A DNA stretch of 64,000 nt, from positions 492,153 to 556,152 of the forward strand of contig CAVVOH010000003.1 of NCBI GenBank assembly GCA_963749935.1, given 5' to 3'. The translations under genes were made by a program, and so were the position numbers. The stretch is from an uncultured Verrucomicrobiae bacterium. Lineage in GTDB: Bacteria > Verrucomicrobiota > Verrucomicrobiia > Chthoniobacterales > UBA10450. Positions 24,330 to 44,346 of the stretch are shown here, piece by piece (positions within the stretch are counted from its first letter, which is position 1; every line of letters begins with the position of its first letter). Under the pieces are notes generated by a model that had not been told where the DNA came from, did no database searches, and saw only the letters and a program-made list of their open reading frames with translations.

Positions 24330-25361
24330 ATGTTGCAAACCGCGAAACCCGCCGCCAAATCCTCCTCGGCAAAGGGCCCGCCGCACGAGCGCTATCTGGA
24401 GGCGTTTCGCTGGATGCTCCAGACGCGCATTTTTGAGGAAAAGCTGACCAGTCTCTATCGCGGAGGACTCATTACGGGCGGCGTTTATGTCGGCCGCGGG
24501 CAGGAGGCTGTCAGTACGGCTTGCGGATTGTTTTTGCAAAAGGGCGACGTCTTTGGTCCGCTTATCCGCGATCAGGCCGGCCGCGCGGCGGGCGGCGAGC
24601 CGCTCCTCAATGTGACGCGCACATATCTCGGTTCGCGACAGGGTTCGATGCGGGGTCGAGATGGAAACATCCACCGGGGTTGGCCCGAAACCGGCCAGCT
24701 CGCCATGATCTCACATCTCGGCTCTCTCATCGCGGTGGTGGTGGGAAAGCTGATGGCGAAGCGGATGAAAGGGGAGAAGAATTTTATCGGCCTAACGACG
24801 ATCGGCGAAGGAGGGATGCAGACGGGCGCAACGCATGAGGGGATGAACATCGCGTCGGTCGAAAAGGTGCCCTTTGTCCTGGTGGCCTCGAATAATCACT
24901 TCGCCTACTCCACGCCTAACGACCGGCAATTTGCCTGCGCCCAACTGGTCGATCGGGCCAGGGCTTATGGCTACGAAGGTCACGAAGTCGATGGAACGAA
25001 CCTGGCCGATTGCCTGGAAGTGATCGGTGGGGCGGTGAAACGGGCGCGCGCCGGCGGTCCACCACAGTTGGTAGTGGCGTCGTTGCTCCGCCTCGCCGGA
25101 CATGGGGAACACGACGACGCCAGCTATGTTCCGGCGGAGATGAAGAAGGAACCGTGGGCGCAGGATTGCGTGGTCGCGACGGAGAAGGTGATCACGGAAA
25201 ACGGCTGGCTCGATGCCGAGACGTTGAGGCAATGGCGCGCGGAGATTTCCGCGGAAGTGGGGAAAGCGGTCGAAACCGCGCAGAAGGAAGAGGGCCCGGT
25301 CGGGAGCGAAGAAGATTGGTGCGCAATCTCGACCCGCCATTTGGTGGACCAAATCTCGTGA
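24330..25361 (+). CDS. 2-oxoacid (pyruvate/branched-chain-type) dehydrogenase E1 component, alpha subunit (TPP-binding)
   Basis: 343-aa ORF. TPP motif GEGGMQTGATHEGMNIASVEKVPFVLVASNNHFAYSTP; also RLAGHGEHDDASYVP. Confidence 0.88.
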   Translation: MLQTAKPAAKSSSAKGPPHERYLEAFRWMLQTRIFEEKLTSLYRGGLITGGVYVGRGQEAVSTACGLFLQKGDVFGPLIRDQAGRAAGGEPLLNVTRTYLGSRQGSMRGRDGNIHRGWPETGQLAMISHLGSLIAVVVGKLMAKRMKGEKNFIGLTTIGEGGMQTGATHEGMNIASVEKVPFVLVASNNHFAYSTPNDRQFACAQLVDRARAYGYEGHEVDGTNLADCLEVIGGAVKRARAGGPPQLVVASLLRLAGHGEHDDASYVPAEMKKEPWAQDCVVATEKVITENGWLDAETLRQWRAEISAEVGKAVETAQKEEGPVGSEEDWCAISTRHLVDQIS

Positions 25362-26328
25362 GCGTCACTTACCTCGAGGCGATCCGTGAAGCGCAGGCGC
25401 ATCTCTTACGCGAGGACGAGCGCGTCTATCTCTACGGGCAGGATATTGCCGGAAAATTCGGCGGGGCCTTCAAGGCAACGAAGGGTTTGGCCGAGAAATT
25501 TCCGGGCCGGGTCCTGAACACGCCCATCAGCGAGGACGCGATGGTCGGCACCGCGATCGGCGCGGCCATGGAAGGGATGCGGCCCATCGTCGAGATGCAG
25601 TTCGCCGATTTCTCCAGCATCGCGCTCAACCAGATTTTGAATAACGCCGGCACGCAGTACTGGCGGACGAATAGTCCCCTGCCCGATCACCGTGCGCCTG
25701 CCGAGCGGCGGCACAAAAGGCAGCGGACCGTTCCACAGCCAGAGCATGGAGGCGATCTACTCTCATTATCCCGGTCTGGTAGTGATGACGCCGGCGACGG
25801 TCGAAGATGCCTACACCATGTTGATCGACGCGGTCGCGATCGATGACCCGGTCATCTACTGCGAGCACAAGTATCTTTATTACCATCTCAAGGCCGATGC
25901 CCTGCCGAAGGAAGCCCTGCCGATCGGGAAGGCCAGAGTCGTTAGGCCAGGCCGCGATCTCACGCATCGTGACGAACAGCGCGATGGTGCACGAAGCGCT
26001 CGCGGTCGCGAATCAGATGAGCCGTGACGGGGTTGAGATCGAGGTGGTCGATCTGCGCACGGTAAAGCCGCTCGATACCGACACCGTGCTCGCATCTGTC
26101 GCGCGCACCGGCCGGCTGGTTTGCGTGGGCGAGACCTTTCCGTGGGGCGGCGTGACGGCCGAAGTGATCGCGCGTGTCACAACCGAAGGCTTTCATCTGC
26201 TCGATGCCGCCCCGGCCCGGCTCAATGCCAAGGACACGCCGATTCCGTATCACCCGAATCTCTGGGAAACCCATCGCCCTAACGCCAAGACCATCGCCGC
26301 CAAGGCCCGCCAGGTTCTCGCCGAGTAG
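25358..26328 (+). pseudogene. 2-oxoacid dehydrogenase E1 component, beta subunit; two frame breaks (~25683, ~25964)
   Basis: GTG overlaps the E1alpha stop. VSVTYLEAIREAQAHLLREDERVYLYGQDIA...VLNTPISEDAMVGTAIGAAMEGMRPIVEMQFADF (tail of ORF 25010-25846). ITVRLPSGGTKGSGPFHSQSMEAIYSHYPGLVVMTPATVEDAY (ORF 25692-26027). AMVHEALAVANQMSRDGVEIEVVDLRTVKPLD (ORF 25843-26328). Confidence 0.85.
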
Positions 26329-39837: not shown

Positions 39838-39861
39838 ATTGATGCATCATGATGCATCAAT
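39838..39861. promoter_or_regulatory. Perfect 24-bp palindrome ATTGATGCATCATGATGCATCAAT (two abutting copies of the self-complementary 10-mer TGATGCATCA) in the divergent MFS/metH promoter region; candidate operator
   Basis: Read directly from the sequence; the reverse complement is identical. Lies ~50 nt upstream of the likely metH start (39909) and ~75 nt from the MFS start. Confidence 0.55.
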
Positions 39862-42280
39862 TTGTTAGTTGCCGTGCAGGCGCTGCTGCGATTAGATTGC
39901 GCATTGTCATGAACGCTGCCGATTTGAATCATCCGCTGGCCGCCCTGCTCCGCGAACGCATCGTCATCCTCGACGGGGCGATGGGCACGATGGTGCAGCG
40001 CCACAGATTTTCGGAGGAGCAATACCGCGGAGCTCGCTTCGCCCAGCATCCGGCCAAGAGTCTGAAAGGTAATCTCGAGCTGCTTCAGCTGACCCGTCCG
40101 GATGCGATTGAAGAAATCCACACCCAGTATCTCGAGGCCGGCGCGGACATGATCGAGACCAATACCTTTAGCGCCACCACTATCGGTCAGCACGATTTTC
40201 TCTTCACCGGCGAATCCGCGAGTGGCCGCAAGGACGCCGGATTTTTCGGCCAGGTCGTGGACGATCCGGAGTTGGTCGCGCTCGCGCAGGAGATGAATCT
40301 TTCCGCCGCCCGGCTGGCTCGCCGCGCGGCCGATCGCGTGGCCAACGAAAGCGGCCAAATTCGCTTTGTCGCCGGTTCGTTAGGCCCGCTCCCCGTGACG
40401 GCTTCCCTCTCGCCGGATGTCAATGACCCGAGCTTTCGGGCCATCACCTTCGATCAAATTTGCCGCGCCTACCGCGAGCAGGTCGGCGCCTTGCTCGAGG
40501 GAGGGGTCGACGTCCTCCTGGTCGAGACGATCTTCGACACCCTCAACGCCAAGGCGGCCCTCTTCGCCATCTCGGAAACCTTCGAGTCGTTAGGGAAACA
40601 TGTCCCGGTTTTGATTTCCGGGACGATCACCGATCTCTCCGGTCGCACCCTCACCGGCCAGACGGTCGGCGCTTTTCTCACCTCGATCCTCCATGCCGAC
40701 CCGCTCGTGGTCGGGTTGAACTGCGCGCTCGGCCCGGCCGAGATGCGGCCCCACGTCGAGGAAATGGCGCGGCTGGCCTCTTGCTTTACCAGTGCGTATC
40801 CGAATGCCGGGCTGCCCGATCCGCTTTCGCCCACCGGATTTCCCGAGACGCCGGAATCAATGGCACCGCAACTGCGCGACTGGGCACAGCAGGGCTGGCT
40901 AAATCTGGTCGGCGGTTGCTGTGGCACGACGCCGGACCACATCCAGGTGCTGGCCGCGGCGGTGAAGGATTGCCCGCCGCGAGCCCTCCCGCGCCCGCTC
41001 GCAGCCGTCGCCTAACAATGACCGACGCGCAGAACGTCCTCCATCTCTCCGGGCTCGAGGCGCTCGATGTCACACCTGACTTTGGTTTTGTCGTGGTTGG
41101 CGAGCGGACCAACATCACCGGCTCACCCAAGTTTTCGAAACTGATCCTGGCCGACGATTTCGAAGGCGCGCTGGTCGTCGCGCGCCACCAGGTCGAAGGC
41201 GGCGCCAACATCCTCGACGTCAACATGGATGAGGGCATGATCGACTCCGAGGCGGCCATGACTCGCTTCCTCCATTTGATCGGCAGCGAGCCCGACATCT
41301 CGCGCCTCCCGATCATGATCGACAGCTCGAAGTGGAGCGTGATCGAGGCCGGCCTCAAATGCGTCCAGGGCAAGGGCGTGGTCAATTCCATTTCGCTCAA
41401 AGCCGGCGAAGAAGAGTTCCTGCGCCAGGCCCGGCTCGTCAGGCGCTACGGCGCGGCGGTCATCGTGATGGCCTTCGACGAAAAAGGTCAGGCCGATAGC
41501 CTGGCGCGCAAAACCGAGATTTGCGCCCGGGCTTATCGCCTGCTGACCGAGCAGGCTGGCTTCCCGCCTAACGACATTATCTTTGATCCGAACATCCTTA
41601 CTGTCGCGACCGGGATCGAGGAACATAACGGTTACGCGGTCGCCTTCATCGAGGCCACGCGCTGGATCAAAGCCAACCTCCGCGGCGCGCGCGTTAGCGG
41701 AGGAGTGAGCAACATTTCCTTTTCCTTCCGCGGCAACAACACCGTGCGGGAAGCGATGCACTCGGCCTTCCTCTATCACGCCATCCGTGCCGGGCTTGAT
41801 ATGGCGATCGTCAACGCGGGGCAGCTCGCAGTTTATGAGGAGATCGAACCCGCGCTCCGCGACCTGGTTGAGGACGTGCTTTTCAATCGACGGCCGGATG
41901 CGACCGAGCGGCTGGTCGATTACGCCGAACGAGTCAAATCGAAGGGTAAGGTCAGCGCGAAAGATGAGGCCTGGCGAAGCGCGCCAGTTGCGGAACGGCT
42001 CTCGCACGCCCTCGTCAAAGGCATTGTCGAACATATCGAGACGGACACCGAGGAAGCGCGACAAAACGCCAGGCGGCCTCTCGAAGTCATCGAAGGCCCG
42101 CTCATGGCCGGGATGAGTGTCGTCGGGGATCTCTTTGGTTCGGGGAAAATGTTTCTCCCCCAGGTGGTAAAAAGCGCGCGAGTGATGAAGAAGGCGGTTG
42201 CCTACCTGATGCCGTACATGGAAGCGGAGAAGCAGGCCGATTCCAAACCGCAGGGCCGCATCGTGATGGCGACGGTAAAG

Positions 42281-42312
<32 letters not shown>

Positions 42313-42830
42313 CGGCGTTGTCCTGCAATGTAACAATTACGAGGTCATCGACCTCGGGGTGATGGTGCCGGCGGAGAAAATCCTCCAGACCGCCCGGGAG
42401 AAGCAGGCAGACATCATCGGCCTGAGTGGACTGATTACGCCGTCGCTCGACGAGATGGTGCATGTCGCGCAGGAAATGGAGCGACAGGAATTTCGATTGC
42501 CGCTCCTGATCGGCGGCGCGACCACCAGCCGCGCGCACACCGCGGTGAAGATCGCGCAGCATTATGGCGAGAGCGTGGTCCACGTGCTCGACGCCTCGCG
42601 CGCGGTCGGCGTGGTCAATTCGCTCTTAAACTCGGAAGCGAAGTTGAAGTTCGACGCGACCACGCGTGCGGATTACGAGCGACTGCGGACCGAACACGCC
42701 GATAAAACGCGAGAAAAGAAAATGCTTACCCTCGAGCAGGCACGGGCGAAGCGCCTCGCGATCGACTGGAGCAGTTACGAGCCACCCGTTCCCGAATTTC
42801 TGGGAGTGCGCAGTGTGGCGACAGCTCCGA

Positions 42831-42876
42831 GGAGCGCACGCGCCTCGCGTGCAGTTTTCGGCGCCTCGCCGAAAAC
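42831..42876. repeat. Left terminal inverted repeat / REP-like double hairpin
   Basis: ggagcgcacgcgcctcgcgtgcagttttcggcgcctcgccgaaaac. Internal hairpins gcacgcg-cct-cgcgtgc and ttttcggcg-cct-cgccgaaaa. Confidence 0.75.
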
Positions 42877-43358
42877 ACCGGGGGAAGACACTCGCTACAG
42901 CAAACGCACCCTTCCTTATTTCGCGCGCCCCTGGGGAAAATACGCCGTCGCCTTTTCGACTTTCGAGCGACGCCAGCTCTCCGCAGCAGAGCGGGACATC
43001 GTTCTGCAGTCGGTCCTGACTGCGCAAGACCGCAATCAAATTGAGCTCTACGCCGCCACCGTGATGCCGGATCATGTGCACCTTCTCTTCGAACCGCAGA
43101 TCAAAGAAACCGATGTTGCCGGTAACGCGGTCTTCTGGTCGCTGACCGAAATTCTCAAGGGCATCAAATCAGCGACCGCGCATCGGATTAACAAAGCGAG
43201 CGGACGCACTGGACCGGTTTGGGAGAAGGAATCTTTTGATCGGTTGATTCGATCGGAATCGGATCTGCAGGAGAAGTTTGAATACATCACGCGAAATCCT
43301 TGGGATTCGGGGGTCATTAGGCCGGACGAGGAATACCCCTGGCTTTGGACGCTGGACG

Positions 43359-43404
43359 CTTTTCGGCGAGGCGCCGAAAAGAACACGCGAGGCGCGGGTG
43401 CTCC
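43359..43404. repeat. Right terminal inverted repeat / REP-like double hairpin
   Basis: cttttcggcgaggcgccgaaaagaacacgcgaggcgcgggtgctcc. Its reverse complement matches the left repeat at about 40 of 46 positions (hand count). Confidence 0.75.
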
Positions 43405-44346
43405 CCAGACGACGTGCGACCCGTCAGATGGTTCGGTGAAGGAAATTTCGCTCGAGACCTTGGTCGAGTACATCGATTGGTCGCCCTTTTTTCACACTTG
43501 GGAATTGCGTGGGCGGTATCCGGCGATCTTCGACGATGACGTTGTCGGAGAACAGGCTCGGGAGCTCTTCGCCGACGCGCAGAAATTATTGAGCCGAATT
43601 GTCGATGAAAAGCTCCTGACCGCGCGTGGCGTTTACGGCTTCTGGCCGGCTAACTCTTTAGGGGATGATGTGGAGATCTATCGCGATGAGACGCGAACCG
43701 AGCCGCTCACCACTTTTCATTTCCTGCGTCAGCAAATGCAGAAACCGGCGGGGCAAATCGAATTATTGCCTGGCTGATTTCGTTGCGCCGAAGAGTTCGG
43801 GTAAAGCCGACTACCTCGGCGGATTCGCGGTCACAGCCGGGATCGGCGCTGACGAACTGGCCAGACAATTCCAGGCAGAACATGACGATTACAGCGCGAT
43901 CATGGTCAAGGCGCTGGCCGATCGGCTGGCGGAAGCGTTTGCGGAATACCTGCACCACGAGGCGCGGATCGCCTGGGGCTTCGGGGCCGCGGAGAGCCTG
44001 ACGAGAGAGGATCTGATTCGAGAACGATATCGCGGCATCCGCCCGGCGCCGGGTTATCCCGCCTCGCCCGATCATGTCGAGAAACGGACGCTGTTCGATC
44101 TCCTGGCGGCGGAGGAAAAGACCGGGATCAACCTAACCGAATCGTTTGCCATGCATCCGGGAGCGAGTGTCAGCGGTCTCTATTTTTCCCATCCGGACTC
44201 GCGTTATTTTGCGGTCGGTAAGATCCAGCCCGACCAGGCGCAGGACTACGCGGTGCGCAAAGGCGTTTCGTTAGGCGAAGTCGAAAAGTGGCTCTCGCCC
44301 AATTTGAATTACGACCCGCGTTCGGTCGTGGCCTAACGAAACCGTC

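Follow-up and report, generated by a model that had tools for sequence, protein, structure and literature searches.

RESULTS

A RAYT unit lies in frame within MetH

The DNA described here is a 64,000-nt stretch ('the window', meaning this stretch at its full length) of contig CAVVOH010000003.1, from an uncultured Chthoniobacterales bacterium of the phylum Verrucomicrobiota. Within its metH (methionine synthase) gene we find a complete REP-associated tyrosine transposase (RAYT; REP, repetitive extragenic palindrome) unit, located in the linker between the B12-binding and activation modules and in frame at both junctions: the open reading frame (ORF) at 40460..43777 (+) runs without a stop across the entire insert (42818-43438; 621 nt, 207 codons), as an earlier note on this DNA had claimed. 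We think it probable that this block is the resident RAYT, a TnpA_REP-like Y1 HUH protein, of a REP/REPIN system (REPIN, an inverted REP doublet) belonging to soil Chthoniobacterales, lodged in the MetH tether and most likely translated there as an internal guest domain. As many related soil Verrucomicrobia have this arrangement too, under purifying selection, the transposase would most likely be made as part of a housekeeping enzyme.

Measured between its outermost repeat ends the unit spans 584 nt (42826-43409), a length not divisible by 3; the figure of 621 nt counts the junction codons too. The catalytic core (42896..43348, +; from YSKR to WLW), recognised in the earlier note as that of a Y1/RAYT protein, is matched by Pfam Y1_Tnp (PF01797; 33.5 bits against a cutoff of 23, E=5e-8) and by NCBIfam REP_Tyr_transpos (NF047646; profile positions 8-145 of 146 covered), the latter at 76.9 bits and thus under the 80-bit equivalog cutoff; the RAYT of the window appears to be a divergent relative rather than an NF047646 equivalog. 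Both catalytic motifs are intact: the HUH motif PDHVHLLF, with its His-Val-His at 43073-43081, and the catalytic tyrosine (43283-43285) within FEYITRNPW (YITRNP), the motif of the C-terminal helix, in which Y-I-T-R-N-P supplies the Y...NP signature of class 2 RAYTs (Quentin et al. 2018, PMC6006769). Among 61 homologues H86 and H88 are invariant, with Y156, N160 and P161 conserved in at least 90%. The AlphaFold2 (AF2) model (61 sequences) has a mean predicted local distance difference test (pLDDT) score of 81.9, rising above 94 for core residues 40-180, with low confidence for the REP-encoded ends. Its top Foldseek match is E. coli TnpA_REP with a REP hairpin (4er8_A, E=3.8e-7), followed by the TnpA chains of ISDra2, IS608 and IS200, all at probability 1.00; a sequence-only search of the PDB gives a weak match to the same entry (4ER8, E=0.032).

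The flanking inverted repeats are the strongest in the window, with arms of 50 nt (42826-42875 / 43360-43409) that are 86% complementary; the earlier note had put them at 46 nt, with about 40/46 matches. The left REP (42826..42876, +) carries the terminal TCCGAGGA (family consensus TCYGGGGA) and comprises two perfect hairpins, an outer (42836-42852) and an inner (42854-42876), each with a CCT loop (DNA fold -23.2 kcal/mol, z=-3.4). Its counterpart on the right (43359..43409, +; terminal GCTCCCCAGA) has a perfect inner hairpin (43359-43381, AGG loop) and, in the window copy, a degenerate outer one (43383-43399). In relatives P0121-P0123 the right outer stem is intact ('TRGACAPQ'). Each REP is translated in frame as 16 residues. 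The proposal of a complete RAYT unit between REP-like inverted double hairpins has held up. The inner-hairpin motif occurs twice in the window, against 0.1 occurrences expected by chance, and there is no further REP copy in the 64 kb besides the RAYT-flanking arms; Rfam has no known RNA family over the hairpins.

Reading the sequence from the left arm to the Y1 core, we see no in-frame ATG, GTG or TTG, in agreement with the earlier note. Just upstream, within the MetH codons for LGVRSV (42802..42817, +), a GGGAG (42802-06) and in-frame GTG codons (42806-08 and 42815-17) form a candidate internal start; with these in place, the earlier note went too far in allowing the transposase domain to be made in no other way than inside MetH. 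On the 3′ side the junction codons (43410..43438, +; 10 residues) lie between the right REP and the activation module, and have the same length and a similar sequence in P0122 (TTRDPLDGSLIE) and P0123; more widely, junction residues differ among relatives. A Ser-Val pair is present at both junctions, as had been noticed, and we considered a target-site duplication as its source. This was rejected, since the two copies are encoded differently (AGTGTG vs TCGGTG) and the repeat is missing in P0121-P0123; its occurrence at both junctions is a coincidence. The junctions show no evident intein splicing residues or blocks, and no intein family appears in the Pfam scan, no intein-specific search having been made. 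There is also no Rfam family on the element, hence no group I intron, the Rfam matches in the window being two tRNAs only.

MetH is a recurrent host

MetH modules and RAYTs were mapped by tblastn over all fetched loci. The closest relative, L001 (81% DNA identity, same gene neighbours), has its RAYT in the B12/activation linker, like the window; here the 5′ junction is in frame, and there are many frameshifts elsewhere in the gene. A second MetH linker, between the homocysteine-binding (Hcy) and pterin-binding modules, is also occupied. L009 carries a RAYT there, together with a 55-aa REPIN-like insert in the B12/activation linker, all within an uninterrupted ORF of at least 1503 codons; in L085 and L005 the Hcy/pterin RAYT is in frame with the Hcy module and followed by a stop after the right hairpin. 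L103 has a RAYT in both linkers, the Hcy/pterin copy (site A) being in frame 5′ with a stop 3′, and the B12/activation copy being in frame on both sides. At the Hcy/pterin site of L085 and L103 the rest of metH forms an ORF whose ATG is overlapped or directly adjoined by the stop that follows the right hairpin; at that of L005 there is no start codon near the left hairpin. The two L103 RAYTs (5767-5246 and 3369-2788, −) are of different subtypes, with the B12/activation copy 56% identical to that of the window.

Searches with chimeric queries recovered many more fusions, from independent JGI, NCBI and ENA assemblies. The proteins P0121, P0122 and P0123 are 79-84% identical, over the best local alignment, to a query made of the window RAYT core and activation module, and a second RAYT/REP subtype (GSARGPRA) is found in the B12-RAYT-activation proteins P0124 to P0128, P0132 and P0151. 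In P0240, P0241, P0243 and P0244 the RAYT is in frame with the pterin-binding module, with an Hcy module upstream as well in P0241, P0243 and P0244. Where junctions vary in length they do so by whole codons, both on the 5′ side (P0059, P0061, P0070, P0088) and on the 3′ side (P0124 vs P0125).

The length of the B12/activation linker in 73 MetH proteins of the clade falls into ranges that correspond to its content: 13-14 residues when empty; 19-31 residues, several with 'DPGSA'-type footprints; 31-87 residues with REP singlets or doublets of at least four families; and 209-214 residues with a RAYT. A near-empty allele in P0156, encoded on a 657-kb contig, reads LGLRVVASDLGSAR|NILPVSLETL and looks like the footprint of a left REP end after RAYT loss. 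A different repeat peptide family (VIPSEVEG...RDPSTALRSAQDD) occupies the same linker in P0148, P0193, P0198, P0202, P0204, P0211 and P0222; a similar peptide (RDPSTALRSAQDD) is also the leader of the free-standing RAYT P0004. There is a third variable spot in MetH, within the activation module between CLAD(Y/F)(V/I)AP and DYLGGFAV, at which L005, L009, P0125, P0127, P0128 and P0138 have 10-30 extra residues and the window has the short form (KSSGKA).

State of the host gene, selection and age

The MetH modules of the window are complete and in the order Hcy, pterin, cap/B12, activation (Pfam PF02574, PF00809, PF02607, PF02310, PF02965). The first metH ORF (39849..41015, +) encodes the Hcy-binding module (S-methyl_trans, E=2e-87) and ends in a TAA at 41013-15. 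The first part of the second (41018..42817, +) encodes the pterin-binding, cap and B12-binding modules as far as the PEFLGVRSV junction, with Pterin_bind, B12-binding_2 and B12-binding all matched 5′ of the insert; the activation (S-adenosylmethionine-binding) module (43439..44336, +; Met_synt_B12) lies 3′ of it. As assembled, then, metH is broken at two places, by a split behind the Hcy module and by a frameshift inside the activation module.

The split takes the form 'TAAcaATG' (41013-41020), with the ATG at 41018 in another frame. It looks genuine, because L087, a short-read-style assembly, has the same split as an overlapping TGATG (L087 6915-6925). The split point in the window and in L087 coincides with the linker that carries a RAYT in L005, L009, L085 and L103. 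As to the frameshift, the Met_synt_B12 profile is divided between two frames (positions 2-103 / 98-273) by an apparent +1 shift at about 43753-43755, where the window has 'caaatcg' (43750-43756) and L001 'caatcg'. This is one A too many, in a homopolymer, and deleting one A at ~43753 brings the frame back. Elsewhere in the window an E1-beta dehydrogenase gene (Transket_pyr; pyruvate/2-oxoacid; 25361-26328, +) is spread over three frames by two frameshifts within ~350 nt, which suggests that the assembly is indel-prone and long-read-like. Given this doubly broken gene and the strong purifying selection on MetH, the extra A is probably an assembly indel error and not a sign of gene decay. The earlier note had named a hidden stop or frameshift as fatal to its reading: there is none inside the block, and the one frameshift seen in metH is this downstream one.

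Ratios of nonsynonymous to synonymous substitution (dN/dS) were obtained by the Nei-Gojobori method. For the RAYT core the ratio is 0.13 between the window and L001 (dS 0.74), and 0.07-0.11 among the other RAYT copies compared; for MetH it is 0.04-0.06, with 0.04 for the window against L001. Guest RAYT and host MetH are thus both under purifying selection, which argues that the RAYT is translated and which we take to exclude a decaying pseudogene. By the same measure the insertion is older than the split between the window and L001 (dS ~0.74-0.86), making the RAYT an old, vertically kept resident. In this the picture given by the earlier note changes: the in-frame unit stands, a recent or unique insertion does not, as the unit recurs at two MetH linkers and predates that split.

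Translation of the family enters through the left hairpin

There are 296 homologues of the insert, nearly all from Verrucomicrobiota/Chthoniobacterales metagenomes and metagenome-assembled genomes (MAGs), mostly ~205 aa long and many of them named RayT by their sources. Among the 120 listed, the left hairpin is translated in one and the same frame (GSARASRAxSGASPE) at the start of 116. The spacing from left hairpin to core is 26 aa in 111 of these 116, with the few length variants remaining in frame. The hairpin peptide is preceded by a start codon at a distance of 8-26 codons, and just two proteins have a Met between hairpin and core. For the right hairpin there are at least three combinations of frames, and in some cases it is not translated at all. 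These patterns indicate that in this family translation begins outside the left hairpin and proceeds through it, and that the 3′ hairpin is conserved as DNA and not as peptide.

All six free-standing homologues whose contigs were fetched occupy the same slot, on the operon strand of a PilM / Amuc_1100 / TPR-secretin (type IV pilus-like) operon (L002 5001-5654; L003 and L004 5001-5657; L125 and L126 3001-3624; L127 3001-3618). In four of the six (L002, L125, L126, L127) the RAYT abuts or overlaps its neighbouring ORFs by 1-4 nt. At every locus examined, therefore, the RAYT is embedded in a host operon or a host gene. At one of these pilus-type loci the RAYT is preceded by a solo double hairpin of the right-end type (L003 4908-4960), ~70 nt before its left hairpin.

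REPs and REPINs in the clade

Scanning one genome per species with the 19-mer of the outer hairpin gave at least 119 stretches that contain it, nearly all from Verrucomicrobiota. Further copies of the repeat, to which the earlier note had looked for a REP/REPIN population, are thus present in the clade and not within the 64-kb window. Among the stretches listed there are 23 inverted doublets with a spacing of 81-130 nt; RAYT units have a constant spacing of 548 nt (552 nt in L001). The consensus of 154 units is TCYGGGGA-GCGCACGCG-CCT-CGCGTGC followed by an inner hairpin of 9-10 bp, with the tag TCYGGGGA(GC) conserved in 147-148 of the 154 and no GTAG tetranucleotide beside the hairpin. The inner stem has 65 different sequences among 116 perfect cases; it is therefore pairing, not sequence, that is conserved here. 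Three quarters of the REP units (76% of 157) are free of stops in all six frames, vs 19.5% of composition-matched shuffles. We also considered a multiple-of-3 rule for the spacing of REPIN doublets, and abandoned it: 11 of 23 comply, not convincingly over one third.

Some REPINs of the clade lie within genes. One doublet is in frame within mnmA, the gene for a tRNA 2-thiouridylase (L064 4445-4574, −), and two are found within a single long uvrA-like ORF of L051 (171-276, +, and a second further downstream). A REPIN-like doublet is likewise in frame in the Hcy/pterin linker of a more distant metH (L060 1080-1330), from an entry labelled 'uncultured Bifidobacterium sp.', a label that is probably a binning error.

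DISCUSSION

A probable guest domain in the MetH tether

The modules of MetH are connected by flexible linkers, and we envisage that the RAYT unit, having neither promoter nor start codon of its own inside the hairpins, would be transcribed along with metH and read through by the ribosome. The REP units, being stop-free in most frames, would be read as linker peptide, giving a chimera in the order MetH (pterin-B12) - REP-encoded disordered tether - folded RAYT - REP-encoded disordered tether - MetH (activation). Such a chimera could keep both activities, because the MetH linkers are flexible, the REP units are compatible with coding and TnpA_REP acts as a monomer (PMC3479197). The RAYT would presumably still bind and cleave single-stranded REP hairpins, contributing to the upkeep of the REPIN population. 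We infer, in short, that the fused polypeptide is made and that it is active on REP DNA.

Several observations count against this interpretation. The fused polypeptide is a prediction from genes, all of the organisms concerned being uncultured MAGs or metagenome contigs. An SD (Shine-Dalgarno)-like GGGAG and in-frame GTG codons lie directly upstream of the left hairpin (42802-42817), such that a separately initiated product is possible; at three sites (L085, L103 site A and L005) a stop comes just after the right hairpin and MetH resumes as a coupled ORF, so that fusion on the 3′ side is not obligatory. The right outer hairpin is degenerate in the window copy. There is no other REP copy in the 64 kb, so that activity in this genome is presumptive. 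Lastly, the assembly of the window is indel-prone, and the exact frame at the short junctions leans partly on relatives.

The rival that makes most use of these points is internal initiation, at the GTG codons that MetH supplies at 42815 or 42806, which would give a RAYT with a free N-terminus and not a MetH domain. In the window this product would run on into the activation module, with a free RAYT made where a stop follows the right hairpin, and the in-frame 5′ junction would matter only for the start codon provided by the host; we hold this rival to be unlikely. The GGGAG is 8 nt upstream of the GTG at 42815; the free-standing homologues start 8-26 codons before the hairpin peptide, similar to the distance of the MetH Val codons at this linker; and L085, L103 (site A) and L005 have a stop directly behind the right hairpin. 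The Hcy/pterin RAYT of L005, however, has no nearby start and yet is under purifying selection and has kept the frame of the Hcy module, the indels being of whole codons, and the 3′ junction stays in frame through whole-codon indels in many assemblies, as expected for read-through from MetH. Internal initiation accordingly seems less plausible for the Hcy/pterin linker than for the B12/activation linker. A different kind of alternative, to which we give low odds, is exaptation, by which the RAYT fold would have taken on a structural or regulatory role in MetH, or in a process linked to MetH, and would have ceased to work as a transposase. Long residence under purifying selection would fit, as would the presence of a RAYT at two MetH linkers, which L103 combines in a single gene, and the lack of REP copies elsewhere in the window. 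Against exaptation, little or no variation is seen across the family in the HUH and Y...NP motifs, every RAYT subtype retains hairpins of its own kind on both sides, related genomes contain scattered REPIN doublets that match, the same RAYT family also occurs outside metH in the pilus-type operon, and many MetH alleles of the clade are without a RAYT or have footprints only.

There remains the reading of the insert as a disruptive insertion into a decaying metH pseudogene, in frame by chance, or as an assembly chimera, which we regard as very improbable in either form. Its attraction lies in metH as assembled, which has a stop at 41013, where the Hcy module ends, and a frameshift at ~43753, and in the metH of L001 being broken into many frames. 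Set against these are the MetH dN/dS of 0.04 between those same two genes, the nature of the frameshift as a single extra A in a homopolymer in a window where E1-beta is broken twice, and the recurrence of the stop/ATG split in L087, on which grounds we rejected the pseudogene; the assembly chimera was rejected on the identical junction architecture seen in independent JGI, NCBI and ENA assemblies.

We would go further only tentatively, and suggest that this RAYT lineage may have given up autonomous expression and survive only where a host frame or operon feeds it ribosomes, the MetH-RAYT chimera being the working form of the REPIN-maintaining enzyme, whose dosage is tied to that of a housekeeping enzyme. 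On such a loss of autonomy, which we judge somewhat short of an even chance, the RAYT would be a translationally coupled ORF in the Amuc_1100/PilM/secretin operon in most genomes examined, and in others a domain of MetH at either of two linkers.

Relation to known systems

The closest relatives of the unit are the REPtrons and REPIN-RAYT systems (PMC3479197, PMC3116915, PMC5581495, PMC6006769), with which it shares a Y1 HUH fold closest to 4ER8, HUH and Y...NP motifs, a gene between inverted REP hairpins, REPINs dispersed in related genomes and loci fixed across species. It differs from them in its tag, GGGGA(GC) instead of GTAG, and in having a double hairpin at each end; in hairpins that lie inside the reading frame with the start codon outside them; in the placement of the gene within a host gene (metH) or host operon as opposed to intergenic DNA; and in an NCBIfam equivalog score slightly below the cutoff.

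Intragenic REPs are themselves not new: those of the GTAG type are most numerous in the verrucomicrobium Opitutus terrae, uvrA included (Di Nocera et al. 2013, PMC3733652). As with these and with the Rickettsia palindromic elements (RPEs), the palindromic repeats here lie within the reading frame of housekeeping genes, to whose products they add peptide, the related loci having doublets in mnmA and a uvrA-like ORF, and the MetH linker having REP singlets and doublets; the known cases add 20-80 residues, whereas here a whole folded transposase lies between two repeats. Flanking repeats that overlap the ends of RAYT ORFs have been noted before ('5'ov/3'ov', Figs 8-9; PMC3733652). In these overlapping REPtrons and in the TIRYT/TIRtron elements (TIR, terminal inverted repeat), as here, inverted repeats overlap both ends of a tyrosine-transposase ORF and there is a G-rich terminal motif (theirs GGGGWSAS), with some of the TIRs being double palindromes. 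The motif found here (GGGGAGCG) is not an exact fit to GGGGWSAS, the protein is without the long C-terminal extension, bearing a helix-turn-helix (HTH), of subclass 2.1, and no host-gene fusion is described for those elements. With inteins and IStrons the unit has in common that the enzyme of a mobile element is nested in an essential gene without destroying it; tolerance here would come through in-frame translation in a linker, and not through splicing.

In the literature we found no description of a RAYT inside metH / methionine synthase, which accords with the remark in the earlier note that no case was known of a whole RAYT in frame in a housekeeping enzyme. One large survey discarded long RAYT fusion proteins as errors (PMC6006769), and in annotation such genes are labelled partial MetH, 'RayT', or fragments.

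Implications for RAYT biology

RAYTs are the textbook example of 'domesticated' transposases, single-copy and vertically inherited, and the present case bears on how they are expressed and held at a harmless dose. Here a RAYT is retained in an essential modular enzyme, at two linkers, in at least two RAYT/REP subtypes and under purifying selection. If the chimera is made, it would represent a route by which the enzyme of a mobile element borrows the transcription and translation signals of its host, and would mean that the palindromic repeats tolerated within coding sequence can bring with them an entire folded enzyme, beyond the short peptides known so far; the relatives, in which one linker ranges from 13 to 214 residues, would then form a natural test set both for how much the MetH tether tolerates and for how REPIN-RAYT systems persist.

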